Origin: Stegastes partitus
Taxonomy: Eukaryota
Assembly: GCF_000690725.1 (NCBI RefSeq)
Contig: NW_007579125.1
Coordinates: forward strand, 119,456 to 183,455
DNA: 64,000 bases
Direction: 5' to 3'
A program made the position numbers and the translations under genes. Shown here piece after piece: positions 7,949 through 54,329 of the stretch; position 1 is the stretch's first letter; every line of letters begins with the position of its first letter. Under the pieces are notes generated by a model. That model saw only the letters and a program-made list of their open reading frames with translations, had not been told where the DNA came from and made no database searches.

Positions 7949-8108
7949 TCACCACAGCGAAGAGTAGTTGAACTGGATCCGCAGCAGGTACCTCATGCGA
8001 GTCTGGGCAGGATTGTAAACGATGAACTCGTTGTAGAGGAGCGAGTAGCTGTTGGTTTTGCCCACTCCGGTTTTCTTCGCGGGGCCCATCGGCACCGTCA
8101 CGCCGTCC
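7949..8108 (-). CDS. parp2: parp2 exon 16 (terminal, stop TGA on minus at 7951..7949)
   Basis: ORF-track ORF 7949..8212. Encodes (L)[52 protein letters not shown]. Human PARP2 ends ...NEYIVYNPNQVRMRYLLKVQFNFLQLW. Confidence 0.85.
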
Positions 8109-11100
8109 CTGAGGAAGAGAGAGACGAGGGAAAGTTGCGTTTTAGTTGTTTGTAACACATTAAGTACAAACTGACTTTCCTTTAAAATGATTCTCACTGT
8201 TTTTAAAAACATCCAAAACGTTTCAGATTCCTCTCACGAGAAGCCAAAACTAGTTTACCACTTAGTTCAACTTTCAAAAAAAAGCTGCTTTTTTGAGGTT
8301 TCAATCTTGTGCTCAATTAATATTTGTTGATCTTATTTATACATAAACAACCATCATTTTCTATTAAAGCAGCTCAGACTTTAACGTCAAGGTTGTGTGA
8401 AATGAAACGACTGCTTTGTTTCACGCTCGGCTCGCTGCACCGCGATAACAGCAGAGTTGTGTTGAATCTACAGAAGAGAAGCAGCACAGCAGGAGAAGCA
8501 GCAGAAGGTCAGTCCATTAGTGGATGAGTCACCACACGGCACAGTTCAGCATTTAGTATTTTGACTCTCGTTTAAGTGGTTTACATCCAAATTGCCTCCT
8601 GTGAATTTTTTCTTTTTAAAAACTGACATTTCTGTGCAGTGCTTGATCATGGCCCTCAATGAACAAGCCTAACGTATATTAAACAGATTAGGTAACCTAT
8701 ACAAGCTGTGTGAGGATGGAGGAGTCTCTGAGCTGAGTGTTGGACTCTGATGATGAGAACAATGACAGAAGTTAATAGAAAAACTGCTAAAGCTACTGAC
8801 TAGGACCTATCCCATGGCACCAGCAATGATTTGTTACTAGCATCATGCAAAACGGCTACTTCCTGTAAGATTTATTTTGATATTTGTCTTCGCTAATGTA
8901 ACTGCAAAACCTTTTCGCCAAGACGATGTAGTGGTTTTTAGTGTGTAACAGTTAAACACAACTACATCAGTACTTATCAGAGCAATGAGAGGGACTAACA
9001 GTGTGACAGAGTTTTTGGGGTCAGGTCCGGTCTGGCCCAGGCCCTTGGTGCTGTGTTTTCCAGCAGGCAGCTTGTTGGCTTCGTAGTCGGCGTCCAGCAG
9101 CTCGTTGGAGTCTCCCAGGGCGACCTGCAGCCACACAAACACAAAGAGCATTACCGTCCAATGACGTGTTGCATCACATCTGGGCCACACATGTGACATT
9201 ACGTTCAATTAATGCACTTCTTTGCTCATTGGCTGGATCAGAGAACGGCTTGTTAGAAGGACAAGTAAGAGCGACAAATAGCAGAAGTGACACCTGCAAA
9301 AAGAAAACCCATCGCAGACTGTTGAAGATATTTCCTCAGTAAATCTCCTGCTGCAGCACCTGAAGGAAAATAGTTATAGTTAACCTCAGATAAACTCACC
9401 TCACACAGTAGCAGCAGCCCAACCTTGTTGTTCTGGCTGGCAAAGCAGTAGTTGGCACTTTTTGACGACATGTCAGCAAAGTAGATACCTTTACCAAACT
9501 GCATGAAAGAGAAATGAGAAAATTAAGATGTATGGCGATGATATTTTGCAGCATAATCATGGATCACTTAGTTTGAAAATGGCCAAAATGTTTTAAAAAA
9601 TATGGAGAAATACAGTTTGAAAATCAAGAATGCGTCTGGGTTTTTCCGTCTCAAACCATCAGGGGCCTCCTGCTCGACGATCTCTGATTCTCTGGAAACG
9701 CTTTTTTCTCATAAACTATGAATATTTAAAATGCCATCTGTTAAATTTTAGACTGATTTATCAAATACGTGGAAAGATAAGTTTCCAAGATGTTTTTTGA
9801 CCTAATATTTTAAAATATAAACTAATATACATGATTTTGGTTTTTTTTGATATGCAGCTACATTTGGTTCAGAAAACATCACTAGTTGACTTTTGCATTT
9901 TTAATTTTAGTGCTTAAAGATGGGATTTTTTTAATTCATCTCACCAATAATTACAAATTATTTTATCTTCGTGTCCAATATTGCATAATCTAAATCAATG
10001 ACACGATGAGAAATAACTGTGAAAATTTAGACTTTTGTCCTGAGATAGTTTAATTCCAACATAACCATTATTTTAATGTGTGAAAAAAAGGGAAAATAGA
10101 AAAAAAATCTCTATATAGAAAGTCAAGCTAAAATTTCTTGAATATTATTATAAATATCCATATTTTTATCTATAAAAATGTCGGCCAAATCAGAGTTGGT
10201 TGAGTGAAAAATGATGTGGAAATCTGATTTTTTGGTAAATAGTCTGCACTTATGGAGCGCTTTTCCGCATTAGTGGTACTTAAAGCGTTTTACAACATGT
10301 TTCTGATTCACCCGTTCACAGACACATTGACAACTTTGGCTTCGGTGTCTTGTTTTTTTTTTCTTTGCTATTTTCTAAATCAGACTTGCTTTTGAGGCAG
10401 ACAAACTAACAGACGATCAAGTCTACGTGTGTCTTTTCTTCCATCCCTACCATGTAACCGGTGACGGGAGCTTCAGGTGGGGCGATTCGGAGGCCTTTAC
10501 TGAGGATGCCGACCCAGTTGGTGAGACGGGAACCGTGCCACAGCAGAGTTCTGGTCGTCATACAAACAGGCAGAGTTCATTGTAAAGTAAAACATCATTT
10601 TAATCAACATCACTGTCACATTTTTTTATAGGTAAACAAGGAACTTATGCTGCTCATACTGGATGCCATGTCTTCTGTGCACTCTTCAATTACTTTCTTA
10701 TCATATACGAACCATTTTTTTGCACTTCTGTTAACTCCACAGGTCACTTTCACTATTTTTTGCACCTTATAGCATTTTTGCTGATGTATATGTTGATATA
10801 CTTTAAATTTTAATATACACTTTTTTTATTTTAACACATACTTTTATATTCTAAATCCATGCTGGGCTAATTGCAACAGAGCTTCGTTCTGTGTGCACTT
10901 GTGGTACATTGAATGACAATAAAGTCTGTCTGGTCTAACTCTAACTTGACAAATCAGAAATCAAAGTCAGCATAAAGCAGTCATGACATTCCTGCTAACC
11001 TGTTGTGTATCTGCGAGAGGAAGTTGCCGCTCTCCCCGTCTCTGTCCACAGAGAACATGTCCAGGACAGTCATGGTGTAGTCACGGTGGGTGGAAGCATG

Positions 11101-14100
11101 AGTGGACTGCAGATACTTTTCTATCACCTTTGGCACAGAGAAGAGGGAATTTATTGCAAAACCCAGCAGCAACCCACGATGAATGTCCCAATCCCAATCT
11201 TAAGATCCAATTCAAGGACCCAGCAAAATTTCAACAAACACATGACACGAAGGTGCATGTTACACTTACAGAGAAGCTACTTCACTTGATCCTGACTTGA
11301 TTTAACACAAGCTAGAGGGCATTAAGAAGGCTTTGGCATGGTACCATTTACTAGCTAAACTCCCACAATGCTCTCTGCTTTCCAACATGGAACTGCTACC
11401 TGGTCTGATTGCCACAGTATTAAACAGTAAGAGGTTCATTGGTTACGCTGCAGTACCTGGTGGTAAAACCAAGCACTACAGCTAATATACAATACTTGAA
11501 GTGTGTATTATATGGTAAAATGTTACCAGGTATCAACAGACAGTAAATAATACATGTGTTGGACAGAACTGTGAGCAAATAAAACTTGATATCCCTCATA
11601 ACCACACAAGTTAAAGGCTGTCAGTGGAGAAATGAGCCTTTTTGGCCTTAACTACAATGGATTCTGTTGCAGAAAGACATCTGACTACGTATATGCTATC
11701 AGGAACTGTGAGCAATTAAAGTAATGTAATAATTTGCTCAAGTTGAAGTTTAAAGAATTAACTTTCTCTTAATTGTCATCTCAGCCATATATAAAGCATA
11801 TGATGGGATGAAATAGACAATATGTACTGCAGGGTAAAATACAAAGTGCGAACATACAGTTTGACGAGACAAAACAGTGTAGAAGTGGACACCATAGCGC
11901 ATCGGTCCCCAACCACCGGGCCGCGGACCGTTACCGGACCGTGGGTCATTTGGTACTGGGCCGCACAGATAGAATAAAAACGTTTTATTGGTTTATTTTT
12001 ATTTCCAGCAGAGACTGCAGGGTGTTTTATTTTGAAACATGACTAGCTCGTCTTCCCGTCACTTCCGTTTTCGTTCGTTTCCCGCACTTGACTGTCAGTT
12101 TTTATGTCCGGCTGCTAAACGAAGCCGTCAGTCAAAAACAAACGTCTCAGGAGAGCTGCTTTGGAAAGTGGGAGAGACTTGATACTGAGACAGAGAAAAA
12201 GTAAACATGTTAAGCAATAAAAAGTAATTTTATTTATTTATGAAACTTTTTAATAGAAAAAAAAAAACAATTATTATTTGTTAGGTGCGCAATGACCGGT
12301 CCGTAGAAAAATTTCTTGCTTAAAACCGGTCCGTGGTGCAAAAAAGGTTGAAGACTGCTGCCATAGCGGATGAGACTGACTAAACACTGACGACTGTATC
12401 CGTTTCAGGGCTAATAACAGGTTGAGTCAAACTAAGCTGAACTGTTTTGAATCAATCCGTCCAACTGTCTTGTTACCACCACTGTTGCTTTTTAAATTTG
12501 GCTGTCATGATACAAGTTCAGCAAATTGGTTAGTAAATTATTGAAAACACACTGACCGTGTACTCATTGCTGCTGGAATCAACAGGCTGCAGTTTGCACT
12601 GGAGGGAGTGGTACTGTCTGTCCAGAGGGTGTTCATCACTGTCCTCACTGGACTGGACCATTTTAACTGCTATCTGGATGTCACTCAAGGCCTTAAAAAG
12701 AAAGCAGACAGACTTTAAATGTACACATGGTTCAGTATGTAGCAGATAAAGACAAAAACATCACCAAACTGGAGCACTTCTTAACTCATTCGAAAAATCT
12801 TACCTCCAACAGGGCAATCTTTTCCTTCAGTTCGTCTTCTGAGCGAATGATTGGAGGAGTTTTCAACCTAAAAAAGAAATACTTTCTTTAGCTACAACAA
12901 CACAGGAATCCATGTAAACAATTCAGACGTTGGTTCTGATGCAGCAGTGTGTTAACAGTTGAACTGCACATTCCCTACCCAAAGTCATGTGGGATGCGGG
13001 TGTAAAACTGGTTGCACGCTTCCAGCAGCTCTTTATTGCTGCCCTTCTTCTTCAAACACTCTTCGATTCTCTTCAGTGCCGTGTAACCTGCACGGATCTG
13101 CTCTGAGGTCAGCTTCCCTAAAGGTACGAAGAAAAACACAAACAGCATGAAGCAAAACAGTGAAAGCTTTGGAAATACTGGTCACTTTTTCACCAGCGGA
13201 ATACATTCAAACAGTCATGAGACACAACTGAGAGCTTGTTTGCATCTTTTGATGATATTGTCGCATGATTGATGCGGAAAAGTAAATTTTGAGGATGTAA
13301 AGTGTACAAACTAAAAGAGTATATCATGACACACTTCAGTACATTTCTGCAGTGATTTGTTTGCAAATTGAGACCGACCGAGCGGAGCTTTCCGCGTGTC
13401 GAACTTCATCTCCAGCACACACTCCTCCATGGCTTTGAGGTCACAGATGAGCTCCAGGAGAGACTGAACCTTCACATCCAGCTTGGAGGTCTTCTTTTTG
13501 GGCGCAGCATCCACCACGGTCTGGTTTTCCTCCTGGAACAGTGAAATACATTCATGAACACAACAGAAGCTGCTTTTTTCCAAGATGTCAAGTCCTAAGG
13601 ATAAATATGTTAAGGGCATAAATATTTTTGGCTCTTTAAACTTCAAAGTACCTTTTCATTCGTGCTGTAGTCCATGAACACCAGGTCATATTTTCCAGCT
13701 ACTTTCTCAAAACTGTCTCGCTGCTCCCACTCATTCTTTGTCTTGTCAAAGAACCTGCAGCAAAAAAAAAAGAAAAAAAAGCAGAATTGTATTAAGCACA
13801 CTTCCACGCAAGACCTGTGGCAACCTTCTTTAAATCAGTCACACAGTCTCACTTTTTCTTGAAGGTATCTTTGGCCTTCAGCAGGTCTCCACCACAGGCT
13901 GTGAGGCTGCTTTGACCCACTTTACCCACTGCACAAACACCACATAAAAAATGAATTAATTCAGTCACCACACAGTAATTTCATTTCAGAAAAGCTTTCT
14001 TGTGTATATTTTTTTGCATAATGACCAACATTTACATACAAATAAAAACAAAATCAGAGAGCAGTAAACTCACCTCTGCCCCATCTGTTCCACACGCTGT

Positions 14101-17100
14101 AAGCCTTTGAGCTGTCGTCCTCCAGCAGCTGGATCAGGTAGTATTTATTGTTGTTGAACTGAAGATTAGTCTGCAAAATAAGACAAAGCTTAAAAATTAA
14201 TTCGCCCTCCCACAAGCCATAATCTAAAATGAAAACACAATTGTTTTAAAGCCTTTGCTTGATTTAATTTCGTTAGATATCATTTCAGAAGCAGTCTAGG
14301 AGTTGTTAACTGTGAAGCACAGTAAAATTAATTTGTTCTAAAATCAAATGCTTGAAACCATAAATAGATGTAATTAGAATTTCTATTAAACTAAGCTCAA
14401 ATTACTGCTTTAGTAAATCAGCACTACTCAGTGTGGGAAAACAAAATATTTGATGAAAACATACCTCCAGCTTTGATTGTATAAAAGGTATATTTCCTAA
14501 TAAATTTGGCATATAGCTGAATCAACCTGTAATTAAATGCTGTTCAAAGATTTACCTGGTTCAGCATCACATCATAAACATCTTTTCCTTCATTGTAGAC
14601 ATGAGCCTGAAAGAGAAAAGCAAAAATTAGTTACATAAATGAGGGTAACTACATTAAATTAGCATCCTGTAACATACTATTTAATGAGGTTTAAGACATA
14701 CACAATTTAGGAAATTGCACACTTATAACACAAGTAAAAAGTGCAATAATAATTAAAATACTCCATAAGCTTTACAAACAAACAAGCAAACAAAAAATGA
14801 TTTGATGAACCAATTGTAATTATTATTGATTAGCTTTCTAGTGTCCACTTAGCATTCTGAGACTGCCTTGTTTGTTCAGCTGACAACACAAAACCAAAAA
14901 AAATATGTATTTTATTCACTATTATTTAAAGAAAATTGACAAATTAAATTCTTTGTAATGTCTTGGAACAAGTAATTGCTAGCAATTTTTACATTCAAAA
15001 AATGACTAATTATTAGCTGTTTATCGATTCCGCTGGTAGTGGGGCGAAAAGATACGTAACAAGGACTGCAAATTAAATCTTAAAAGAAATAAAGATAAAT
15101 TACAAAAAAAAAAAGTGTACTAGATATTATTCTCACGCAATAGCAGATAAACAAATAGCATAGTTGTTGGCATTTAGATGTGCAGAACTGAATGCTTTCA
15201 TTTTGTTTGCTGCAATGACATTGTTCAGATTTGTTGCCTATCGACTGAGTTTTTGCTTGACTCGCTTACATGTTTAAAAAGTTACTCTGGTTAAACAAGA
15301 TTTAAACTTCAATCTAATCATTTATGTTGTAACCAGACATTTAGAAGCACACTTACAACACCATGTCATGCCCACAAAGGGAACTGTAACTGGAGCAGTG
15401 CTTTGCCAAAACCCCTCTCACAACCAGGTGTCAAACCGCAAAACACAACCGATGTGACTCATGAGTTTCATGTCTCGTGTGGTCACAGGAAACTTTACCT
15501 TTCCAAGCTTGGCTTTACATTCAGCGTCCACTGGAGCTTTGCCCTTCATAACCACCGTCTTCACAACCTCTGTTGAGCACACGGACATCATGACATCAAT
15601 GAGGTGAGCTGGCATTTGCTAGGTACACTATCACAACACTATCACATCCTGTTCACCTGTATAAACTCACAAGCGTAAAAACAGCAAAAAAAAAAAAAAA
15701 AAGTCCACAGTTGTAAATTAGTTAAACAACATATATAACAAACTAGATCTGTATTACCTTCGCTTTTTATTTCTTCTTTGGGCATTTCTTCCTTTTCTGT
15801 CAGCTTCTTGCTTTGTCCTCTCCTCCTCTTAGCTGCAGGTTGCTCTTCCGTCTCCTCCTCTTCCTTTTTAACTTGAACCGGTTTGCTATTCTGAGTATTC
15901 ACGTCGCCAGCCTCACTGGAACTTTCTTAACAAAAGAACAGAAAATATATATTTTTTTAAATACTTTGAGAAGTTTAGCTTTTGTGCAAACCCAAATATG
16001 ATGAAAAAACTGAACAAATGCAAGATAATTTTGATAATTCTGCTCCTGTGATTGGTACTATACCTATCAAAATGTTTACACAACTGCAACTATTTGAGCT
16101 GACTGCAATTATTTTGCATCATTAAAATAGTTTCACCTGTTAAAACCAGCTGGATCAAACTAACAGAAATATCACAGTTCAATCACTATTTCCATGTCAT
16201 TTTCCAACATTTGCGCTCCCTTCTGCTATTGTTAAATAGCACAAACTATTCATCGAGGTGCCTAACTTTTAATATTTGACCGTCTGTATTTTAATAAGCA
16301 TCTAAATTTCATGGATTTAGTTGCAAAGTCAAACACCACAGGATCTCTGTGGGCCCCTGCTGATATTAAGCCAAATGAAAAAGAAGGACAGCCCAGTAAT
16401 GTGGAAGGAGCAATTTGTCACATTACCACCAAATTGCATATTATGAAGAGAGAAAGACAATTAAATCTTTAATCACGATTATTTACATGACAGTTATTAT
16501 TCAACTGATATTTCATGATTGTGACAGCCCTAACTACTACAACTAACCCTAACCCTTTCCTAAAAATTCTAATACAACACTAGTTTTGAAAATGTAACAG
16601 TCTCATTTTACAATTCTAAATGTGGATTTGTTGAAAATAGACAGCCCCCAGAAAGCTGGCATGTTGAAGGGATGACAGAAACTAAGCATTAAAAAAAAAA
16701 ATCTGGAAAAAGAAAAAGGGAACATATACAGTGTGATACATAATAATACAAACCTGGCTTTACAGTCTGAGAGCGTATTTTCCTCTTGTACTTAGTAACA
16801 GGGTTAATCTGGAACATCTTCTTTAGATCAACTTCGTAGGCTGTCCCCGAACCCAGACTCAGAGTGACAGATGTTTTCCCTGAAGAAACAGCCGAGTCCA
16901 ACAAGGCACAGGCTGAAGGCGAATATGGTTCCCACTGTCCTTCATCTCCCTTCCACTGCCACACTGATCACATAGAGAAAGACAGAGTAGTTATAATTTC
17001 GCTGCTGAAACAGGTTGAATATTTTAATTTCAAAACACTTGGGGTTCCATTAACTTGTCATTTGCTGTTTTTGTTGCATTTAATAGAGTAAATGATTAAT

Positions 17101-18183
17101 GCATTAACCCAAAACATCTTTAACATTAATCAAAATTGAACATAATCTTTCACAGCAGCCCTGGTATACAGGATAATTAAGATTAATAGCTCACCGTCAT
17201 TAACTTGAAAAGTTACAATTGATTAAATTCATAAACAAGACATTTCTTTTCATTAAAATACTGGTTCTGATTACGGTTTGTTGCCTTTCACGGGTGTTTC
17301 TGTTCAAATTTTATTCCTCTGGTACTAATAACAGGTACAAACAAGTGGAAAGTAAACACAGAGAGTTCATTGTTTGTTAGTTTTACTTTGTTGTGGACAA
17401 AATTAATATAGTGCTTTTTCATTGTTATAATTTAAAGCTTCTGGAAAAGTCTTTTTTTTTTTTTTTTTTTAAAGGAAATTGCCAAAGGAAACGTGCAAAA
17501 CGAAAACGAAACCAAAACAGGTATCTGCTTGAAGCATCACACATTGCAATTCCAATATATTGCCTGATATTAGCTGTAAAAGCCTAAAAATGATCCTTAT
17601 TGCCGATATTTGTCTGTGAGCAATTTTGAGCCCAACAGTATGTTCAACTGTAGAAATATTACATGAAACAATTTGCTCTTATTTCACCCGAAGACCTGAA
17701 TATTTGGTTAAACACCACCTCCTACTACTAAAGTGAAAAGTCAAATCTTCGTAAAACTGGTATTTAATGCCAAAACCGTGGATGTTTGCTTGGTGAACAG
17801 TATGAAGCTGCAATACAAATACAATGCACCACATACATCCGTTTTTATCCAGGACTCCTGTCTGACTGGTAAAACTGGATTTGACAGTTTCAGGTTATTA
17901 TAACATGTCGTACCAGGTTCAGATACCACACTGAGAATAAACTTAGTTGATTTTTACAACTTTACATACACAGTAAAGCCAGGTTAGAGTACTTATAAGA
18001 TCTGATAACACTGATTTCCTGCTGCTCTTTGCCCAGACATGTCCTCAGTCCGAGTGCCGTTGTCCACTTACAGCAGCTAACGGCAGCTAAAGCTAAAAAC
18101 AAGCACCAACCTGTTTTCGACTGGACTTCTTCACTGTCTGGTGCACTCTGACTTTTATTTGCGGAACCTCTTGTTCGTCTCAT
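7949..18183 (-). CDS. parp2: poly(ADP-ribose) polymerase 2 (parp2): gene span, 16 coding exons, about 580 aa, plus an optional WWE exon
   Basis: Minus-strand exons translate to a protein colinear with human PARP2 as recalled from memory. Examples: ...[22 protein letters not shown]..., [56 protein letters not shown]...[17 protein letters not shown]...[21 protein letters not shown], and the C-terminus ...[30 protein letters not shown]. All 15 introns are GT-AG with consistent phases. Confidence 0.85.
9000..9124 (-). CDS. parp2: parp2 exon 15
   Basis: ORF-track ORF 8843..9208. Encodes [41 protein letters not shown](L). Donor gttagt. Confidence 0.85.
9400..9498 (-). CDS. parp2: parp2 exon 14
   Basis: ORF-track ORF 9253..9504. 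Encodes [33 protein letters not shown]. Donor gtgagt. Confidence 0.85.
10451..10550 (-). CDS. parp2: parp2 exon 13
   Basis: Encodes (R)[33 protein letters not shown]. Donor gtaggg. Confidence 0.8.
11000..11127 (-). CDS. parp2: parp2 exon 12
   Basis: ORF-track ORF 10981..11172. Encodes [42 protein letters not shown](R), the start of the catalytic domain. Confidence 0.8.
11885..12360. mobile_element. MITE-like non-autonomous DNA transposon with terminal inverted repeats, in parp2 intron 11
   Basis: 5' end cggtccccaaccaccgggccgcggaccggt and 3' end accggtccgtggtgcaaaaaaggttgaag are inverted complements (caacc...ggaccggt). The interior is AT-rich, with internal accggtccgt repeats. Confidence 0.5.
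12557..12691 (-). CDS. parp2: parp2 exon 11
   Basis: Encodes [45 protein letters not shown]. Donor gtcagt. Confidence 0.75.
12804..12867 (-). CDS. parp2: parp2 exon 10
   Basis: Encodes (G)[21 protein letters not shown]. Donor gtaaga. Confidence 0.75.
12979..13117 (-). CDS. parp2: parp2 exon 9
   Basis: Encodes (G)[46 protein letters not shown]. Confidence 0.8.
13379..13532 (-). CDS. parp2: parp2 exon 8
   Basis: ORF-track ORF 13311..13646. Encodes [51 protein letters not shown]. Confidence 0.8.
13652..13754 (-). CDS. parp2: parp2 exon 7
   Basis: Encodes (K)[34 protein letters not shown]. Donor gtactt. Confidence 0.75.
13853..13928 (-). CDS. parp2: parp2 exon 6
   Basis: Encodes (V)[24 protein letters not shown]. 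Donor gtgaga. Confidence 0.75.
14074..14170 (-). CDS. parp2: parp2 exon 5
   Basis: Encodes [32 protein letters not shown]. Donor gtgagt. Confidence 0.8.
14556..14606 (-). CDS. parp2: parp2 exon 4
   Basis: Encodes [17 protein letters not shown] (human [17 protein letters not shown]), in the WGR domain. Donor gtaaat. Confidence 0.8.
15499..15569 (-). CDS. parp2: parp2 exon 3
   Basis: Encodes (E)[23 protein letters not shown], matching human ...KGKAPVDPECTAKVGK. Donor gtaaag. Confidence 0.75.
15758..15925 (-). CDS. parp2: parp2 exon 2
   Basis: Acceptor ttgttaag|aa, with an in-frame TAA just upstream. Encodes (E)[55 protein letters not shown] (basic, NLS-like N-terminal region). Donor gtaata. 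Confidence 0.65.
16754..16963 (-). CDS. candidate alternative cassette exon encoding a WWE domain, inside parp2 intron 1 (210 nt, phase 1-1, in-frame with parp2 exons 1 and 2)
   Basis: ORF-track ORF 16689..16964. Acceptor ctctatgtgatcag|tg, with an in-frame stop 6 nt upstream forcing this acceptor. Encodes (V)[69 protein letters not shown], a textbook WWE motif pattern. Two possible donors: cca g|gtttgt (phase 1, compatible with parp2 exon 2) or act|gtaaag (phase 0). Confidence 0.5.
18111..18183 (-). CDS. parp2: parp2 exon 1 (ATG 18183..18181)
   Basis: ORF-track ORF 17962..18183. Encodes [24 protein letters not shown] plus 1 nt. Donor GTTGGT. Confidence 0.7.
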
Positions 18184-18661
18184 GGTGTTTTATGGAACTA
18201 CTTCGCTAGCTGCAGTGGTAAAGGGGCCACAAGTGACAATAGCACACCGCGGGAAAGTTTTCTCTACTAACTTCCTGCTTGCTGAACTGGTGTGTGCTGC
18301 TAAAGATCGTTTTTCTGTGCGCATGCGTATTGGCAGTTACCATGACAACGGTTTTAACTGAAGTCTATTAGACTGACAACGTTTGTTGCAAATACGTTCA
18401 ACCATAATTTAAAATATATATATTTTATGCTTATGTGCAATTTTGTTCATACTATGATCACATGTTCACAAATTTGATCAAAGAAGAGAGTGTGCACCTT
18501 TGTCTTAAAGGGGGAACAAAGTTTCAAGGCTAAAAGGTTCCGCCTTAGCTCATAGTCGGAATTATTTTGTTAATGGACCGGTAAGCTCCTAACGTGCCGA
18601 ACGTGGATGGAATTTATGAGTTTAATTTGAGACTATTAAAATACTATTTAGCACCGCGAAC
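18184..18661. promoter_or_regulatory. bidirectional promoter / 5' UTRs shared by parp2 (minus) and mettl17 (plus), head-to-head
   Basis: The parp2 ATG at 18183 (minus) and the mettl17 ATG at 18662 (plus) are divergent and 478 bp apart. The interval carries CG-containing motifs (gcgcatgcgtattgg, ccgcgggaaag). Confidence 0.55.
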
Positions 18662-18730
18662 ATGGCATCGCGGTGCTTCGCCACTTGTGTTCTCCGTCAG
18701 CGGGCGGTTGTGGTGAAGCCGACCCGCAGG
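18662..18730 (+). CDS. mettl17: mettl17 exon 1
   Basis: Encodes [23 protein letters not shown]. Donor gtgagt. Confidence 0.7.
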
Positions 18731-21700
18731 GTGAGTGCGGTTCGTGGGTGTCATTGAACGCAGCGTCGTTTATCATGGAGGTCAGATAAACTGTTAACAC
18801 ACAGCTAGGAGAAAGAAAGAGTTAAACTCAGTTCACAGCACAGATTTATGGGGTAAAAATGTTAGAATATTTGTTGTATATGATTATTATTAGGGTTTAG
18901 GCTGCAGAATGGAATAAAAACTTCAAACGTTTCTCACTAGTGTTTTGGGTGATGAAACCTACAACTGGTTAAAATAACATTGATTTCATTTGCGACAAAC
19001 TGAAAACGTGTTAGATATCATCAACAAACTACCCAGCTTGATTAATATTTGTCTTGTTTATTACCTCTGTATTATTCTCTGCTTTATTTTTGTTTGATTT
19101 GTGGTCATATTGGTTGGACTTATACATACACTGTCTAATCTGCGTAAAATTGATGTTTTTCAACAGGATTCAAAGAACTAAACATTCTGTGATCTAAATA
19201 CTTCTCAGATATTTGTCTTCGTTACTAAATTTATGTTTGTGCCCCTTCTATTGTCATTTTTTAAAGAAACCTCTTCCAAATTATTTTAGCGTACTGCAAA
19301 AATTCATTCTTAAAATCGTTTTTTTGGGGGGTCTATTTTTTCTGTCAGTCAGTATTACTCAGATGTATTTAATTAGAATTATGAAAATAACTGTTGGGTT
19401 GGCTAACAAACTGTTTAATTGTGCATTCGCTTATGTTACTGATGATGTAGTTGTGATCTTTCTTAATAAAATTCCTGAAACACACCTTTATGTTCCCAAT
19501 TGATTTAAGTGTTATTTTTGTATTTAATTAAAACAGTGTTGACTTCTTTGTATAGAAAGAGACACGCAAAAAATTCAAAGCATATTGATGGTCGAAGAAT
19601 GAAAGCATTGCATGCAGTTAAAACTAGTACAGGGGAGAAATTTCACTATTTGACTATTTACACACATTGTCATTATTTTTTATGCAAAACAGTGTGAGAT
19701 GCACATTTCTGGAGTAGGTGTTTGAGAAATAAGATTTCCGTCTATCTTGCCTTGCAGATTTCAGTCCTTCTGCCATTCAGTTTGTAGGTAGTTTGTTTGT
19801 GATGCTCCTCTTGTGTGGATGATGGCAGGATAATAGGAATAAAATATTCCAATATGCACATTTTTTATGATAATATATATATATATATCACCTTGAAATA
19901 TAGTTCTTGTAAATGTAATTAAGAAAATGCATATCCAGTGTGAGTGTGAGAGTGTGAGTTATTTAAATAAGAAATCGAACATACGGTTATAGTTGGACTG
20001 GACTGAAGATTTTAGAAAATCTGGTTCTAGTAGTATTTTTGTTCTGTGCATTATTATACTTGACCTTAAAGGTGTATCAAATCTACATTCATGTGAACTT
20101 TACACTCTCAGGCAATGAGTGCAGCTGCCCATCTGCAGCCCCAGGCAGATTTCCTGAAAGGAGAAAAACACAGGAAGCACCCTGGTGTGACCAACCTGAA
20201 AGCTCTGCGACTACCCGAGGAGCTCCAGGTGGCTGCGCAGTCGATTATTCACAGTAAGCTCTGTTGTCATGTAGTACTTGTCAGCTAATATACCAAATGA
20301 TTCCTGCTTCTCAAAATTTGTGAAAACACTTTATCACTCCTCCTCTCCGGGTTCTCCGGCTTCCTCCTACAAGTCCAAAAACATATTGAGGCTAATTGAT
20401 GATTCTAAATTGTCTGTAGGAGTGAATGTGAGTGCTTGGTTGTCTGTCTCTAAGTGTAGCCCTACGAGAGACTAGTGATAGCCCCACGCGACCCTAGTGA
20501 GAATTAAACGATGTATAGATAATGGATGGATGGACTTTATCACTCCTTAATCTCTCCACCTACAGGAGCTCAGGTCACTCGGCTCCCCGAGCGTACTCAC
20601 AAACTCACAAACGTCCTGTGGAGCCGGAAACGAGCAGTCGAGGATTTACCGCTCAGGCAGAAAGCTATGAGTCTGGAGAAGCAGCTCTGGGAGGAAGCCA
20701 TGCAGAAGGATGGAGGTGGGTGGCACATGGACAAACAGTGATAACAACTGTGGAGAGATTTTCTGATGCAGCAGCTGGAGAAAATACATGTGCTTTGTAT
20801 TGCAGATATTGATGAGGAGGCGGTGGAAGACCGCATCAGGAGGAAGGTTTTCTCAGAGCTCAGAAGAACGACATATCGCTGGAGTCCCCTGAAGTAACGC
20901 ACAATTTATACACTGTGCATGCTCTTTTGTACATGGATAGTAGCCATGAATCTGTTAAATTTAGAAAATTACGGGTGTGTTCAGACATTCTCTCTCTGTT
21001 AGTTGACCCATTTCTCGTGGAGAAGCTGCCTCCTTTACCGATATTAGGCTAATCTATGCCAGTGTTGACGAATATTGAACAGTTTAAACCTTTAATTTAT
21101 AGAGTTTAGATGCTATAAAAGTCTTATGTGTTGAATTTTACTGTATAAGAATGTAATGTTGACAGATTGACCTTTCAAAAAACAGTAAACGGTGAACTCA
21201 GTTACATTTTGGAGCTTGAGTTGTAACAGACAGACTCTCTGTGTTGCAGGTTTGATGAAGAGTTAGGTGTGGTGTACATGGCGGCTCGGCTGGCTGGAGG
21301 CTACGCAGCCGTGAGGAGAGCTCTGAATGAGGTAACGAAGAGGTGTTAGATGGGATCATCGTCGGTGATGTGTGGGGCTTTCCTTTTAAGAGAGTTGGTT
21401 CAAGCAGATCACATAGGAAAAGCCTGTAAAAGTTACGGTGTCAGAGGGTGAGGTTTGTGCTTTATCTCTCCTAAGTGAGTGTTTTTGTATTTCAGATAAA
21501 GAAGAGAGATCCTTCGTTTGCCCCTCAGTCTCTCCTGGATTTTGGTTCAGGCCTGGGAACCGTTGCTTGGTTAGTTTGCAACACTGGTGCAACATTAAGA
21601 GAGTTTTGTCTAAATTAAATAAAAACAGTAAATGAAGTCTCTTTTTTTTTTTTTACTTCTGACAGGGCGTCCCACTCGTGCTGGGGCGACTCTTTGAAGG

Positions 21701-24700
21701 AAATGGTGTGTGTGGACAGCTCTGGGCCAATGAACATTTTGGCTGAACGACTTCTCAAAGGTACACACAAACTATTTTACTAGTTTATTTTAAAGTCAAG
21801 CACAGTATTTAATTTAAAAAAAACTGAGCATTTGTGCGTTTATTGTTGCGCAGGTGATGATGAAAGAGCCGAACCTCACTTCAAGCAAGTCTATTTCAGA
21901 CAGTTTCTCCCTGTCTCTCCTAAGGTAAGGCCCCCGAAATACATTCTGCATTCACTGTAAGAAAGTTACAGGTCCTTCAAAACATACTTTGTGTTATAAC
22001 CTTTAATTCTGAGTCATAAATGAGATGAAAACAGAGACATTTCTGGTCTTAAAGTCACATGGAAAAAGTTGGTTCGTGGATAGTTTGTCCACAATCATTA
22101 TTATCGAGATGCATTTAAGTAATATGTAAGAAAGCTTCAAACACACATTTAGGTTTTCATACCTCCAATAGATTATTAATAAAATAAAAGTGTAGGGCAC
22201 TGAGGCTAGAAAGACACACAGAGCAAAATAAAGTCAAAACATTAATGAGAATATTAGCATTACATGCAGTTAAAAGTAGCTCCAAAAAGTGGGGCAAGGT
22301 GACAGAAACATAGTGATTCTAATGGATTGTCTCCTCATACTTTTGCAGTGATGTTGCCAACTTTGCAGATAATCCTAAGGATGAGAAATTGTGACCTGTC
22401 TGTTTCATTTTTATAGGTGCAGTTTGACTTGGTAGTCGCAGCTTTCACCCTGTCTGAGCTTCCTAATGGGAAAGATCGAGAAGACGCAGCATTCACACTG
22501 TGGAGAAAGACGAGCTCGTATCTGGTTGGTTAAAACAACGATAAAACTCACAGATGGTGCACATTTGTGTGTTCTGTTGCTCACTGGACTACTGGAAGAT
22601 TTTAATTTATAGTAAAATATATTATGTAGGGCTGCAAGGTGGCGCAGTGGGTAGCACTGTTGCCTCGCAGCAAGAAGGTCGCCAGTTCGCGTCCCAGTGA
22701 GGACACCCAGGATCTTTCTGTGTGGAGTTTGCATGTTCTCCCCGTGCAGCGCGGGTTCTCTCTGGGTTCTCCGGCTTCCTCCCACACAGTCCACAAACAT
22801 GTTGAGGTTAATTGGTGATTCTAAATTGTCCGTAGGTGTGAATGTGAGTGTGCTTGGTTGTCTGTCTCTAAGTGTAGCCCTGTGATAGACTGGTTACCTG
22901 TCCAGGGTGTCCCCTGCCTTCACCCTAAGTCAGCTGGAATAGACTCCAGCCCCCCATGACCCTAGTGAGGATTAAGCGGTGTATAGATAATGGATGGATA
23001 TTATGTAAGTGGTAGTCCTGATAATGTTTTTCACATTTTATGTTGTAGGTGCTGGTGGAAAACGGGACCAAAGAAGGCCACCAGACGCTTATGGAGGCCA
23101 GAGACACTTTATTAAATGTACTCAAATACAGTAAAGAAGATTTAACACGTGCAAGATGCTGTTGTGTAAATAATTGACGCAGTTAATCAAACTAAAATGA
23201 CATTTCTTTAACTCCAGAAAGAAGAGAAGACTATCCACGACTTCAGACCTGCGTCAGTTTTTGCGCCGGTACGTTTAACTCACAGCTGGTTTAAATCATA
23301 CCATACACTCAGCCAACAGTCTTATTGCATCTCCTCCCTATTGTTGTGTTTTTTTTCCCCCCAGTGCTCTCATGAACTCATGTGTCCTAAACTGGCCCGA
23401 GAGCCCATCACACCCTGCAACTTCCAGCAGATGTACCATCCTCTGTCTCTGCCTGGGGTAACAGTCAGCTCCTACTTACATCTGTCGACTGAATTCTTCT
23501 TAAAACAGTGAAAAAAAAAAAAAGGATAAAAGTTCATTCTTAACCCTGGAAATAATAGTTTAAACAGAATGAACGCTTTTTAGCAGTGAAATATTTGTCA
23601 AGTCAGACTGTAAACAAAAATACTTCTTACATTTGCAAACAAAGTCCCAATCAGCCACATAGTTTCCTTCCAGAAACAGAGTTTCTTATATACAGTCATT
23701 CAGAAAAACTACTCTTCAGATTAAGTCACTGAAACAAGCTGTTTAATTGCTTGTAGCTTTATAACTTTATTTTCTGCGCCTTCTTGTGTTTTTGTCAATA
23801 AATTAGTGCAAAGCCGCTTCTGTAGGTGGCGCTGTTTTCTTTATTTTCCCAGCTCCTGTGTCATCACAGCTCAAGCTGACGTTTCTGTGTTTAAAACTAG
23901 TTTTTAAAAAGTTAAAGTCAAAAGTCAAAGCAAACTTTTTTGTCAATATCTCTACATGTGCACAACATACAGAGAAATTGAAATGCTGTTTCTCGAAGTC
24001 CCGTAGTGTACAGAAAGCAAAAATATAAATATATATAAAGAATACAAATATAAATACAGTGCAAATGCTGCAGGTGTGCAAAATAGTATCTGTGTCAGCA
24101 CACTGGGATCAGCGTGCTTGTGAGCATTTTAAACTCTTTACTGTTTAAATCACCACAATTACAAGGCAGAAGTTAGAATATACAAGCAAACTGAAAACGT
24201 TTCTATTTCATAACAGATAAAGAACAGCAATCATAGCATGGAGAAGTTCAGCTACCTGATTCTGAGTCGGACGGAACCAGTGGAAGCAGAAGGAGTGACC
24301 TGGGCGAGGCTGACCGCTCCGGTGCTGCGCAGATCCAGACATGTTCACTGTCACATGTGCTGCCCCGACGGACAACTGCAACACAAGGTGGTGACGGCAC
24401 GAAAGCACAGCAGGTAAACGTCCTGCAGCGCACAAACGCATCTCATTATTTTCTTGTAGAAAAAAACAGTGATGAAGTGAGGACTGCAGCATTGCCTCAT
24501 TCAGTGGCTTTAATAACTTCTTCTTTGAAGTTGCTTTGCATTTTTTTGTCATTGCTTTGTGTCTGCGTGTAGTTATTTGTGTCTCTGCGGTTGTTTTGCA
24601 TCTCTTTGTAGTGGTTTTGCATCTCCGTGAAGTTGCTTTTGTGTTTTTGTAGTTGTTTGTAGCTGTTTATCGTTGTTTCGTGTCTAGATGTAGTTACTTG

Positions 24701-26954
24701 TAGCTGTATTTTGTGCCTCTTTGTAGTTGTTTCATGCCTCTTTGTCATTGCTTTGATGTCTTTGTGGCTGTTTTTGTGTCCTTGTAGTTGTTTAGCATCA
24801 CTTCTGTAGCTGTTTTGTGCCTCTTTGTAGTTGTTTTGCATCTCTCTGTAGCTGTTTTTGTATCTATTTGTTCTTGTTTTTACATCCACATATAGTTGTT
24901 TTGTGTCTTTTTACGCTTGTTTTTGTTCATCAGGCTCTGAGATTCAGGTAGTGATATAATGCTACCAAATACAGGTTTCAGCTGAACATAGCACTAATTT
25001 AATAAAATGCAATAAAATAAAATATACTTTATTATCCCAGACCTGGGAAATTAAAAACAGCAGCATCCAAAATCCTAGAAATAATTATTTAGAATTCTAT
25101 AGAATCATTGAAAATTCTATAGAATAATTTTGAATTCTATAGAATTATTTAAATTTCTATGGAATTATTTAGAATTCTATAGAATTTTTTAGAATTCTAT
25201 AGAATGAAAAATACTTTATTTATCCCAGACCTGGGAAATTAAAAACAGCAGCATCCAGAATCCTAGAATTAATTATTTAGAATTCTATAGAATCCTTGAA
25301 AATTCTATAGAATCATTTAGAATTCTATAGAATTTTCATGGATTCTATAGAATTTTTTTAGAATTCTACAGAATCTTTTAGAATTCTATAGAATTATTTA
25401 AAATTCTATGGAATTATTTAGAATTCTATAGAATTTTTAGAATTCTATAGAATTGTTTAGAATTCCATAGAATCCTTGAAATTCTATAGAATCATTTAGA
25501 GTTCTATAGAATTTTTCAGAATCCTTGGTGCAGCGCCGCTCTTTAACGCTAACGTGCCAGCATTACACCATCTCTCATTCACACACATGGCGAGTCCCCA
25601 GCCTTTCTTCTTACTGCTGGTGAAATCCGTCCAAAGTTACGAGCAAGTCCAGAGTGAGTTCATTTAGCCATGACTCCATGAACTACATACGGCTGCACTC
25701 CCATTACTCCCACTGCAACCGGGTCAGCGCTGTTAGCTGTTAGCTCTTAGCTCTTCCATCTGTTAGGGAGAGACCTCATGTTTCTATGATGATGGATGGA
25801 CAGATGACTTGTAGCGTCTCCTCCTCTCCCGAGGCTTCAGTCTTGCCCTGCATCCGTTCTTCCTCCTGCGGAGCTCATCGGGGATGTCCGATCTCTCCCA
25901 CGGCGGTGGCTTGGCCTGGCTCAGCGCCAACAGCTGTTGATGAGTGTAACAACAATAGAGCCATGGCTCGGTGGCTCAACGGCTCACAGGCTCACCAGAC
26001 GCAGACCCCAAAAACTCACAAAAACAAGCAAAGAACAGACAAACAAAAACGTAATCTGCATCTCCTATATTCCCGCACAAATGTGGTACAGCTGTGTGAA
26101 ATTAAAATATTAAAGATAGAAGAAAAGTCAAAGTAAATAGCTAAAACACAGAAAGCAGGTAGGAGCCGCTGCAACTGGCTGCCACTCTCACAGCGCCATA
26201 GCATTTTTAATTTTAATGGACTCATTTAAAGCTTTTTTCCCCCAATATTACGCAGTGCTGACTATTTAGTTATTTTCAAAAATGCAAGCCACATTTACAT
26301 TTTCACATTTTTTGTTGTTTCAAAATATTTTAAGATATTAGGGATAGAATATTGCAATTTTTCCAAGTCAAGGTGAGATTCCAAAGTAAAGATAAATAGC
26401 CCCAGGAGTACCTTGCATTTTAGTAAAATAAAATATTGTATTCAGGCTTTACCAAACTCCAGTTGTTTTTGTACAGTATTTAACCAGCTAACGTGAGGAA
26501 ACTTGCATTAAAAACCATTTATAGGCAGCCATTTGTCATGAAGAAATATTACTGGCTTTCATTATGTGGCAGATTAATATTCATAAATTTAAAAAAAATG
26601 TGTTCAAGTAAATGCTCTTATTCTGGTGATAATTAAGAATGTGCTGATTAAATTTGATTCAGTTTACTAGTAAAAAATAAAAACAACAAACAATAATAGG
26701 GTACGACAAGATTTCAAGTAGACTTAGATTCAAATCCAGCCTTTACTATCTGATCGTGTCTCTGAACAGTGGAGAAATTGGGACACCATTTGTTTATTAG
26801 CTTTTATGTGACTTTTCTAGATTTTCCTGTTAACTGTGTGTCATTTTCCCGAATCAGAGACGTGTACCGCTGCGCTCGGAGCAGCGACTGGGGAGATCAA
26901 GTGCCCATCATTCCGACAGTCGAAGAAGACGTCACCAGTGATTCAGAGGGATGA
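18662..26954 (+). CDS. mettl17: methyltransferase-like protein 17, mitochondrial (mettl17): gene span, 14 coding exons, 461 aa
   Basis: Exons translate to a protein colinear with human METTL17 as recalled from memory. Matching segments include [126 protein letters not shown] and [13 protein letters not shown]. The N-terminus [23 protein letters not shown] looks like a mitochondrial presequence. Confidence 0.85.
20112..20253 (+). CDS. mettl17: mettl17 exon 2
   Basis: Acceptor ctctcag|. Encodes [47 protein letters not shown]. Donor gtaagc. Confidence 0.7.
20394..20537 (+). mobile_element. SINE 3' fragment (same family) in mettl17 intron 2
   Basis: gaggctaattgatgattctaaattgtctgtaggagtgaatgtgagtgcttggttgtctgtctctaagtgtagccct...gaccctagtgagaattaaacgatgtatagataatggatggatgg. 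Confidence 0.7.
20566..20715 (+). CDS. mettl17: mettl17 exon 3
   Basis: Encodes (R)[49 protein letters not shown]. Donor gtgggt. Confidence 0.7.
20806..20893 (+). CDS. mettl17: mettl17 exon 4
   Basis: Encodes (D)[28 protein letters not shown]. Donor gtaacg. Confidence 0.7.
21250..21331 (+). CDS. mettl17: mettl17 exon 5
   Basis: Encodes (K)[27 protein letters not shown]. Donor gtaacg. Confidence 0.8.
21496..21569 (+). CDS. mettl17: mettl17 exon 6
   Basis: Encodes [24 protein letters not shown](W). Donor gttagt. Confidence 0.8.
21666..21760 (+). CDS. mettl17: mettl17 exon 7
   Basis: Encodes (W)[31 protein letters not shown]. Donor gtacac. Confidence 0.8.
21854..21924 (+). CDS. mettl17: mettl17 exon 8
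   Basis: Encodes (G)[23 protein letters not shown]. Donor gtaagg. Confidence 0.8.
22417..22524 (+). CDS. mettl17: mettl17 exon 9
   Basis: Encodes [36 protein letters not shown]. Donor gttggt. Confidence 0.8.
22628..22997 (+). mobile_element. tRNA-derived teleost SINE, near-full copy, in mettl17 intron 9
   Basis: tRNA-like head ggctgcaaggtggcgcagtgggtagcactgttgcctcgcagcaagaaggtcgccagttcgcgtccc. Conserved body ...gtggagtttgcatgttctccccgtg...taattggtgattctaaattgtccgtaggtgtgaatg...ccctgtgatagactggttacctgtccagggtgtcccc...gctggaatagactccagc...ccctagtgaggattaagcggtgtatagataatggatgg. Confidence 0.8.
23049..23117 (+). CDS. mettl17: mettl17 exon 10
   Basis: Encodes [23 protein letters not shown]. 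The donor gtactc is weak but is the only one that preserves frame with exon 11. Confidence 0.65.
23218..23268 (+). CDS. mettl17: mettl17 exon 11
   Basis: Encodes [17 protein letters not shown]. Donor gtacgt. Confidence 0.75.
23365..23457 (+). CDS. mettl17: mettl17 exon 12
   Basis: Acceptor ttttttccccccag|. Encodes [31 protein letters not shown]. Donor gtaaca. Confidence 0.75.
24217..24413 (+). CDS. mettl17: mettl17 exon 13
   Basis: Encodes [65 protein letters not shown](R). Donor gtaaac. Confidence 0.8.
24497..24920. repeat. minisatellite, roughly 20-40 bp degenerate units (gtagttgttttgcatctctt-like), about 11 or more copies, in the last mettl17 intron
   Basis: Repeated ctttgtagttgttttgcatctct / ctttgtagctgtttttgtgtct units. 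It gives long spurious ORFs on both strands (24497..24889 minus, QNxYKEMQ-repeats). Confidence 0.8.
25015..25530. repeat. minisatellite with palindromic core (agaattctatagaatt), arranged in a higher-order repeat of about 185 bp
   Basis: About 22 copies of tagaattctatagaat(t/c)att. The flanking unit aatactttattatcccagacctgggaaattaaaaacagcagcatcca(a/g)aatcctagaa is duplicated at about 25020 and about 25205. Confidence 0.8.
26858..26954 (+). CDS. mettl17: mettl17 exon 14 (terminal, stop TGA 26952-26954)
   Basis: ORF-track ORF 26769..26954. Encodes (R)[31 protein letters not shown]. Confidence 0.8.
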
Positions 26955-28815: not shown

Positions 28816-29243
28816 TTAGCTCCCAACAATCTGCTTCAGCGCTGAGGTCAAGTCTGGGTACTTGTACTGAAATCCAGACTCTAAAGTCCTCTGTGGGATG
28901 ACTTTTTGGCCTTGAGTGAGGACCACGGCCCTCTCAGAGCCCATCAGGGTGTTCATGACGAAGCCAGGCACGGGAAAAATGGTGGGCCGCCTCAGGACCC
29001 GGCCCAGTTCTTTAGTGAACTCGTAGTTGGTGTTGAGCGCAGGTGCGACTCCGTTCAACACTTGCGGTGAAGGGGAGGCAGCGTCGGCAGCGGGCTCCAG
29101 CGCCTGGGCGATGATTCCTGCCAGGTCCGAGACGTGGATCCAGGGGAACGGCTGACTCCCGGACCCCAGGGTGCCACCGAGGCCGAGCCAGAAGGGCAGC
29201 AGCATTTGCTTCATGGCGCCACCATCTCGACCCAACACCGCTC
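28816..29243 (-). CDS. sdr39u1: sdr39u1 exon 5 (terminal)
   Basis: ORF-track ORF 28816..29280. Acceptor ttctccag|. Encodes AVLGRDGGAMKQMLLPFWLGLGGTLGSGSQPFPWIHVSDLAGIIAQALEPAADAASPSPQVLNGVAPALNTNYEFTKELGRVLRRPTIFPVPGFVMNTLMGSERAVVLTQGQKVIPQRTLESGFQYKYPDLTSALKQIVGS*. Confidence 0.85.
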
Positions 29244-54210: not shown

Positions 54211-54329
54211 TCCCCGACCACACTGCAACATCTTGAGATCAGTCCAGGATCCAAGGCCTGCCCACACAACCCCAAGAGGATGACAGGGAGAGTGAAACAA
54301 ACCCCCAGCTCCACGCCAGTATAACATAC

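Follow-up and report, generated by a model that had tools for sequence, protein, structure and literature searches.

An annotated WWE-encoding second exon in the parp2 gene of Stegastes partitus

Introduction

The presence of N-terminal WWE domain(s) in the PARP2 homologues of bird, frog and fish was described by Perina et al. (2014, DNA Repair 23:4; PMC4245714), the only description of a WWE domain in fish, teleost or zebrafish PARP2 that was found in the literature; Otto et al. (2005) and a preprint on the RNF146 WWE held no pertinent information. The N-terminal region of human PARP2 binds poly(ADP-ribose) (PAR) and is required for PARP1-dependent recruitment and for the synthesis of branched PAR (Chen 2018, PMC6089979).

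The window analysed here is a stretch of 64,000 nucleotides from Stegastes partitus, with parp2 on its minus strand. A sequence-only reading of this DNA had placed an extra WWE-encoding cassette exon inside intron 1 of the gene. It is very probable that this segment is the constitutive exon 2 of parp2 and that a WWE domain is a normal component of teleost PARP2; the domain may bind ADP-ribose units of PAR. This explanation draws on the exon structure, the inclusion of the exon in mRNA, the identity and fold of the encoded domain, the conservation of its adenine/AMP residues and its phylogenetic spread.

The parp2 Gene in the Window

Splicing of 17 GT–AG exons from the window yields a protein 100% identical to the 650-aa entry "poly [ADP-ribose] polymerase 2 [Stegastes partitus]" of NCBI and UniProt (P0015). 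All of the exons lie on the minus strand and are placed by this splice model. Coding exon 1 (18111–18183), also covered by a transcript contig described below (L001), begins with the ATG at 18183 and encodes a 24-residue N-terminal peptide plus one nucleotide; the 5′UTR reaches at least about 18280. Exon 2 (16754–16963) encodes the WWE domain, and exon 3 (15758–15925) an acidic/basic linker (ESSSEAGD...KRRRGQSKK...EEIKSE). The WGR region starts in exon 4 (15499–15569) and is followed by exons 5 (14556–14606), 6 (14074–14170), 7 (13853–13928), 8 (13652–13754), 9 (13379–13532), 10 (12979–13117), 11 (12804–12867), 12 (12557–12691) and 13 (11000–11127). The catalytic His motif LLWHGSR, also read directly in P0015, lies in exon 14 (10451–10550) and GKGIYFAD in exon 15 (9400–9498). 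After exon 16 (9000–9124), the coding part of exon 17 (7949–8108) runs from LLYNEFIVY to NYSSLW and the stop codon, and the 3′UTR extends to about 6872 according to the alignment with L001.

Besides the WWE domain, the same protein carries the WGR (PF05406), PARP regulatory (PF02877) and PARP catalytic (PF00644) domains. The H–Y–E triad can be read in LLWHGSR (His), GKGIYFAD (Tyr) and LLYNEFIVY (Glu), which we take, by analogy, to correspond to H862, Y896 and E988 of PARP1. The best 120 matches in the databases are 76–99% identical, and every functionally named one is a PARP2, the rest being unnamed Logan contigs or "hypothetical/unnamed" entries. In mammals, an RNase P RNA gene lies beside parp2; no Rfam match to such a gene was obtained at gathering thresholds in the whole window.

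Exon 2 and its Splice Sites

Exon 2 comprises 210 nt, is in phase 1 at both entry and exit, and encodes the single WWE domain as residues 25–94 of the 650-aa protein; its exact limits follow from the splice model, whose translation is the annotated protein. The acceptor region (16964–16978, tctctatgtgatcag then TGTGGC) and the donor (AGCCAG then gtttgtat, 16746–16753), both on the minus strand, were read directly and agree with the model. The stop-free stretch starts at 16967, immediately after an in-frame TGA that precedes the first codon of exon 2 by 6 nt. The mechanically called minus-strand ORF (16689–16964) opens at a GTG and exceeds the exon, reading through into the intron. Across the junctions, the protein reads ...EEVQSKT|VWQW...VKP|ESSSEAG, with split codons for Val (g+tg) and Glu (g+aa).

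Most of the sequence-only reading survives this comparison: a real 210-nt coding exon with the flanking exons it had named, an acceptor with an in-frame stop 6 nt upstream, the phases and split codons, and the CCAG|gt donor. Its alternative donor, act|gtaaag, sits within the exon upstream of CCAG|gt and is not used, since the residues that follow are retained in the annotated proteins (VKP in P0015 and VKL in P0016) and in the mRNA contig. Nor is the exon hidden in an intron: it is exon 2 in the sole RefSeq model for S. partitus, and it has the same place in more than 100 PARP2 models from other teleosts.

Transcript Evidence and Conservation

Support for exon 2 at the mRNA level comes from the RefSeq model and from L001, a 3,120-bp Logan RNA-seq contig (SRR28040439) of a close relative whose PARP2 is 93% identical in protein to that of S. 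partitus. This contig contains one 649-aa ORF. Its alignment takes in all 17 exons in colinear order, exon 1 being joined directly to the WWE exon and this in turn to exon 3. In a protein search, about 25 more Logan contigs of 2–4 kb showed the same full ORF.

The conservation in other teleosts that the sequence-only reading had proposed to look for is present and is confined to the exon. In genomic ORFs from 11 other species, similarity runs from VWQW to VKPG, ends at both splice sites and gives way to divergent sequence beyond. All four domains (PF02825, PF05406, PF02877 and PF00644) occur in 120 of the best 120 relatives, none of which lacks PF02825. They come from many different teleosts, including smelt, whitefish, Polymixia and Diretmus, and a separate search added the PARP2 of the catfish Clarias, which also bears a WWE domain.

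The idea that exon 2 is unannotated was considered when a search with the 70-aa peptide gave nothing beyond 14 short Logan ORFs, all unnamed, and so missed every annotated protein. The gap was caused by the word-index step that selects candidates; a full-length composite query found more than 100 annotated WWE-containing PARP2 proteins, which ruled this idea out.

Skipped, Shortened or Nested Forms

Three other accounts of the locus concern how the exon is used. A separate nested gene or transcript in the parp2 intron, with its own start and polyA, had been named by the sequence-only reading as the case that would undo it, and deserves almost no credence. The GTG start of the mechanical ORF call is all that was found in its favour, whereas L001 joins the WWE to the WGR, regulatory and catalytic domains in one parp2 ORF, conservation does not extend past either splice site and takes in neither a start nor a stop, and the phases of exon 2 match those of exons 1 and 3. 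The undescribed cassette exon, with a default PARP2 devoid of the WWE and a special isoform that both writes and reads PAR, is highly improbable. Its length, a multiple of 3, and its symmetric 1/1 phase mean that skipping would keep the frame, a necessary but not sufficient property. Against it, the exon is part of the single RefSeq model and of all the best 120 relatives, and the architecture had already been published (PMC4245714). A direct junction of exon 1 with exon 3 is absent from all 89 annotated or assembled isoforms of 10 teleost clusters, and no isoform with such a junction appears among the best 120 matches either. The WWE domain is present in 85 of the 89, and the other four are N-terminally truncated or fragmentary. 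Isoforms of about 580 aa from these clusters were also rejected as exon skips: they start at an internal Met, within exon 2 or exon 3.

These shorter forms suggest another route, in which fish would make a WWE-deficient PARP2 through alternative 5′ ends and initiation at Met50 in exon 2 rather than by skipping. Annotated isoforms of Sander lucioperca (X5, 581 aa), Gymnodraco acuticeps (X2, 574 aa) and Oreochromis aureus (581 aa) fit this route, and Met50 is invariant and found in the window too. However, the isoforms are computational predictions, and the S. partitus annotation contains none of this kind. WWE domains in general conserve Met50 as a core residue (the M.Q.N motif), so its conservation requires no role as a start codon. 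This route is regarded as unlikely, and the constitutive exon as the preferred reading.

The WWE Domain and its Ligand Pocket

The 70-aa translation of exon 2 (VWQW...VKP) matches the Pfam WWE profile PF02825 with 69.3 bits (E = 3.8e-19) against a gathering cut-off of 21.1 bits, covering profile positions 2–66 of 67. This score, well outside what chance would give, bears out the near-canonical WWE domain proposed from the sequence. The WWE fold is a half-barrel β-sheet packing one helix. An AF2 model of the domain (pLDDT 88.2) has the element order E–E–H–E–E–E–E, and the top 24 Foldseek matches of this model in the PDB are all WWE domains, with rmsd values of 0.8–1.3 Å for the best of them and TM scores of up to 0.88. 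The predicted fold is matched by HUWE1 WWE with ADP-ribose (TM 0.88), TRIP12 WWE (TM 0.85, rmsd 0.8 Å) and RNF146 WWE with iso-ADP-ribose (TM 0.81–0.82).

Four residues of RNF146, Q153, Y107, R163 and Y144, line its AMP pocket (PMC8853533). They align to Q52, W4, R61 and Y43 of the exon 2 domain, which are invariant in 12 of 12 teleost sequences (alignment A1). At W4 the aromatic character is kept, with Trp in place of the RNF146 Tyr, as in ZAP. Given this conservation of the adenine/AMP pocket, PAR reading by the teleost PARP2 WWE is plausible, judged from sequence. Outside this pocket, RNF146 W114 aligns to the conserved W11, R110 aligns to a different residue, D7, and K175 falls outside the alignable region. 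In Wang et al. (2012), these three residues are reported to form the phosphoribose sub-pocket of RNF146 and to give it iso-ADP-ribose specificity, with R110 contacting the phosphoribose. The Asp at the R110 position thus leaves the specificity for iso-ADP-ribose, rather than ADP-ribose, ADP or ATP, uncertain in fish. Certain WWE domains show no PAR binding at all.

It is conceivable, if rather doubtful, that the exon is constitutive while its domain is not a PAR reader, and binds free ATP, ADP or ADP-ribose, acts as a protein-interaction or structural module, or regulates the enzyme through its own automodification chains instead of recruiting it to PAR made by PARP1. The crystal structures of the nearest solved relatives (HUWE1, TRIP12 and DTX1), whose ligands are ATP, ADP or ADP-ribose, agree with such a view, as do the Asp at the R110 position and the example of ZAP, which keeps the AMP sub-pocket and lacks the phosphoribose sub-pocket (PMC8853533). 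However, the four AMP-pocket residues are invariant across the 12 teleost sequences, the ZAP WWE is reported to bind PAR despite the same Tyr-to-Trp change (PMC8853533), and the PAR binding of human PARP2 resides at the same N-terminal position (PMC6089979). No PAR-binding experiment on any PARP2 WWE was found in the open literature searched. Binding of PAR remains the favoured proposal for the function of the constitutive domain.

Proposed Role and Significance

Exon 2 encodes one complete WWE domain, which follows the N-terminal peptide of 24 residues; a charged linker then leads into the WGR, regulatory and catalytic domains. This WWE-bearing form is the normal teleost PARP2. It very probably descends from an old metazoan PARP2, usually with two tandem WWE domains, of which teleosts kept the second; the experimentally studied human and mouse enzymes have neither. 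In the mechanism proposed here, the domain would bind ADP-ribose units of PAR and bring or hold PARP2 at sites that are already PARylated, for instance by PARP1, and this binding would favour further, possibly branched, PAR synthesis. In human PARP2, this role belongs to the disordered N-terminal region.

A more speculative proposal, with only a slim prospect of being right, combines regulated WWE-defective isoforms in teleosts with, separately, an ancestral role of the PARP2 WWE as a device for PARP1-dependent recruitment. Such isoforms could arise by rare frame-preserving skipping of exon 2 or from alternative 5′ ends starting at Met50, and PARP2 would then be toggled between PAR-reading and PAR-blind forms. 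The disordered N-terminal region may have replaced the ancestral recruitment WWE in the human/mouse-type enzyme. The ancestral recruitment role, if true, would be a functional first, since the open literature searched held no experiment on any PARP2 WWE.

The WWE exon of fish parp2 is already known. It does not constitute a discovery, because the reference annotations of S. partitus and of over 100 further fishes include it, and a paper of 2014 had set out the architecture. The sequence-only reading went wrong on novelty by treating the domain layout of human and mouse PARP2 as standard. It nevertheless offers a calibration point: working from raw sequence, it was right about the exon and where it is spliced, about the phases and about the encoded domain. 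Since the WWE of non-mammalian PARP2 occupies the place of the PAR-binding N-terminal region of human PARP2, fish or frog PARP2 could serve as a cleaner, folded-domain system in which to study how PARP2 reads PARP1-made PAR.

Comparison with Known Systems

The product of the window is the same thing as the WWE-bearing PARP2 proteins of Perina et al. (2014), with the WWE upstream of WGR–PARP_reg–PARP. That work, together with examples from sponge to platypus, overturns the statement that WWE domains occur in no described PARP2. In database searches, the architecture WWE(x2)–WGR–PARP_reg–PARP was found in platypus, frogs, coelacanth and electric ray, and in oyster, snail, centipede, flatworm, nematode and sponge, while a PARP2-like protein of tick has one WWE. 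Teleost PARP2 thus differs from that of coelacanth, frogs, platypus, electric ray and many invertebrates in having one WWE instead of two in tandem. To look for a relic of the first WWE in intron 1, window positions 15000–19500 were searched by tblastn with PARP2 N-termini that carry two WWEs, from coelacanth, frogs and platypus; exon 2 was the only match.

Human and mouse PARP2 share orthologous WGR, regulatory and catalytic domains with fish PARP2. The difference lies at the N-terminus, which in the human enzyme is short, disordered, basic and devoid of a WWE (also lacking in mouse), whereas in fish it consists of a folded WWE and a charged linker.

The WWE domains of HUWE1, TRIP12, DTX1 and RNF146 have the same fold as the exon 2 domain (TM 0.77–0.88, rmsd 0.8–2.5 Å), the closest among these E3 ligases being HUWE1, TRIP12 and RNF146. 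The adenine/AMP pocket of RNF146 is conserved in fish PARP2, and the Asp at the R110 position is shared by fish PARP2, TRIP12 and HUWE1. In these four proteins, however, the WWE is carried by a ubiquitin ligase, and in fish PARP2 by a PAR-synthesising enzyme. The clade-3 PARPs (PARP7, 11, 12, 13/ZAP and 14) resemble fish PARP2 in combining a WWE and an ADP-ribosyltransferase domain in one polypeptide. They are, however, mono-ADP-ribosyltransferases or inactive, with the WWE beside the catalytic domain, whereas fish PARP2 is a poly(ADP-ribose) polymerase of clade 1 that contains a WGR domain and has its WWE at the N-terminus.

The parp2 Locus and Its Second Exon

The minus strand of the window carries a complete parp2 gene, recognizable as stop-free segments from about 18183 to 7949. 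A composite protein assembled from these segments, including the WWE exon, was used as a protein-search query and proved 99% identical, over 100% of its length, to the 650-aa poly [ADP-ribose] polymerase 2 of S. partitus held by NCBI and UniRef (P0015). Scanning every junction for GT-AG pairs yielding P0015 gave 17 coding exons and a 1,953-nt CDS. Since the translation of this CDS reproduces P0015 with zero mismatches, the window is the S. partitus parp2 locus.

The segment 16963..16754 (minus strand), which the sequence-only reading had taken for an extra exon hidden in parp2 intron 1, already stands in the reference model as exon 2, with a length of 210 nt and phase 1 in and out. It is bordered by the acceptor tctctatgtgatcag/TGTGGCAGTGGAAG and the donor ACTGTAAAGCCAG/gtttgtat. 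The split codons proposed for its two ends (g+tg, Val; g+aa, Glu) correspond to the annotated junctions of P0015, which reads EEVQSKT/VWQW on entering the exon and VKP/ESSSEAGD on leaving it. An ORF call is present at 16689..16964 on the same strand. The proposal that an in-frame stop bounds the acceptor also holds: a TGA lies immediately before 16967, where the stop-free stretch opens, so that an acceptor further upstream is impossible in this frame.

The 70-aa exon translation matches the Pfam WWE profile (PF02825) at profile positions 2-66 of 67, with 69.3 bits and E = 3.8e-19. As the gathering score of this profile is 21.1, the identification of a WWE exon is correct and far above chance. 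The nearest solved WWE domains by sequence are those of DTX1, TRIP12, HUWE1 and RNF146.

Transcript Evidence and the Constitutive Use of Exon 2

The PARP2 of a relative (P0016, 649 aa, 93% identical) is encoded by a single unbroken ORF, carrying WWE, WGR, PARP_reg and PARP, on a Logan contig of 3,120 bp assembled from run SRR28040439. The uninterrupted ORF identifies this contig as spliced mRNA. In the alignment, it is colinear with all 17 exons of the window and passes from exon 1 (end 18111) through the WWE exon to exon 3 (start 15925/15926). The same full-length WWE-bearing ORF is found on about 25 more Logan contigs of 2-4 kb among the best 120 matches.

These sequences also decide between the two donors that had been considered. 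An alternative act/gtaaag donor is unsupported because the residues ahead of exon 3 are retained (VKP in P0015, VKL in P0016), and because conservation in 11 genomic ORFs of other species extends from (S)VWQW to VKPG and is lost right outside. The donor in use is the distal one.

Skipping of exon 2 would preserve the frame, and the exon had accordingly been presented as a cassette; yet there is no indication of skipping in the best 120 matches or in the cluster members listed. PF02825 was present in 120/120 best matches of the full composite, a list in which a WWE-less full-length isoform from the nearest species (at least 86% identity) would outscore the lower bound. Because such isoforms could hide within 90%-identity clusters, the members of 10 teleost clusters were listed (89 in all, among them numerous RefSeq X1-X5 isoforms as well as Logan contigs). 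The WWE is present in 85 of the 89, and no member shows an exon 1-exon 3 junction. Predicted forms of ~580 aa (Sander lucioperca X5, Gymnodraco acuticeps X2 and Oreochromis aureus; P0349, P0375 and P0318) start at the conserved internal Met50 in exon 2 and would miss most of the WWE, while Epinephelus lanceolatus X3 starts within exon 3; the remaining three WWE-less members are truncated or fragmentary. The ~580-aa forms suggest that the 5' end varies, not that the exon is skipped. Teleost parp2 thus uses the WWE exon constitutively, as its annotated exon 2.

Query length mattered in these searches. In a word-indexed protein search, the 70-aa exon alone retrieved only 14 short Logan ORFs and missed >100 annotated PARP2 proteins that share this domain at 75-100% identity. 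In that tool, a short query that finds nothing is therefore no evidence of absence.

Other Features of the Window

In mammals, PARP2 and the RNase P RNA gene RPPH1 share a bidirectional promoter. This arrangement is not seen here: at Rfam gathering thresholds, no RNA genes were detected in the whole 64 kb, including 18184-19500 upstream of parp2. A DUF1731 domain (67.9 bits) is encoded at 28819-29289 (-) in a stop-free stretch of 157 aa, probably the last exon of an epimerase-family gene resembling SDR39U1 that lies downstream of the parp2 promoter region. Rhodopsin-family GPCR (7tm_1) segments at 43702-44352, 42434-42820 and 40810-41151, all on the minus strand, cover profile positions 1-158, 149-228 and 229-260, respectively, and represent either one multi-exon receptor gene or two genes.

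An interspersed repeat occurs as two inverted copies, at 3241-3552 (+) and 22414-22893 (-), sharing a 33-residue translated stretch; the latter copy has no Pfam match, and a related fragment may lie near 111-507. Tandem arrays are found at 25083-25516 (21 copies of about 20-nt units, AATCATTTAGAATTCTATAG) and at 24717-24880 (3.5-3.9 copies of about 42-nt units), the second within a long lysine/threonine-rich pseudo-ORF. The region 54001-56000, with a GC content of 0.494 (about 0.38 elsewhere) and a strongly positive GC skew (0.217), could represent the first exon of a gene or a promoter of the CpG-island type; it contains a 324-aa stop-free stretch at 54855-55826 (-). At the window end, 63406-63993 (+) holds a 196-aa serine/proline-rich stop-free stretch (SPxSSPSSRGWLSPASS..., GGKKRRNSP) with no Pfam match, which gives the impression of an NFAT-type regulatory region from a transcription factor.

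Phylogenetic Spread of WWE-Bearing PARP2

Residues 1-278 (WWE, linker and WGR) were searched against a 50%-identity representative library, and many long proteins aligned WWE and WGR as a single block. Judged from Pfam scans and cluster names, PARP2 or PARP2-like proteins of WWE-WGR-PARP_reg-PARP architecture have two tandem WWEs in platypus (XP_028933514.1), the frogs Leptobrachium, Ascaphus and Engystomops, coelacanth (XP_064416490.1), the electric ray Narcine, oyster, the snail Bulinus, a centipede, a flatworm, the nematode Syphacia and the sponge Ephydatia, and one WWE in the tick Ornithodoros. Teleost PARP2, including that of catfish, Prochilodus, smelt and whitefish, has a single WWE, slightly nearer the second (VWQW-type) WWE of coelacanth (62.8 vs 58.9 bits). 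No relic of another WWE was detectable by tblastn in 15000-19500, including intron 1 (16964-18110). Two entries appear misnamed: KAL3988835.1 of Sarotherodon galilaeus, titled 'casein kinase 1, delta', is a 654-aa member of the cichlid PARP2 cluster, and UniRef lists the PARP2-like protein of Engystomops as 'MADF domain-containing protein'.

The assumption that WWE domains are absent from all described PARP2 proteins is wrong, because Perina et al. (PMC4245714) already report WWE domain(s) at the N-terminus of PARP2 homologues from bird, frog and fish. The sequence work of the earlier reading was accurate, but its claim of novelty fails, with the exon annotated and the architecture published. 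WWE-bearing teleost parp2 belongs to a known, widespread architecture, and the absence of the WWE from human and mouse PARP2 is the derived state.

Fold, Ligand Pocket and Proposed Role

Modelled with AlphaFold (mean pLDDT 88.2), the exon product superposes on the WWE domains of HUWE1 with ADP-ribose (TM-score 0.88, rmsd 1.1 Å), TRIP12 with ADP/ATP (0.85, 0.8 Å) and RNF146 with iso-ADP-ribose (0.81-0.82, 1.1-1.3 Å). In RNF146, Q153 binds adenine and Y107 stacks on it, while R163 and Y144 hold the AMP phosphate (PMC8853533). With an RNF146 sequence 100% identical to PDB 3v3l_A, these four residues align to Q52, W4, R61 and Y43 of the fish exon product, respectively, all invariant in 12/12 teleost sequences; the Tyr-to-Trp change at the Y107 position is also found in ZAP (PMC8853533). 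Strict iso-ADP-ribose specificity is uncertain because the equivalent of RNF146 R110 is Asp, as it is in TRIP12 and HUWE1.

No experiment on any PARP2 WWE was found in the literature searched.

Human PARP2 binds PAR through its disordered N-terminal region, which is also required for its PARP1- and PAR-dependent recruitment to sites of damage and for the synthesis of branched chains (PMC6089979). By analogy, the fish WWE would most likely fill this role as a folded reader: it would dock PARP2 on PAR that is already present and promote further PARylation.
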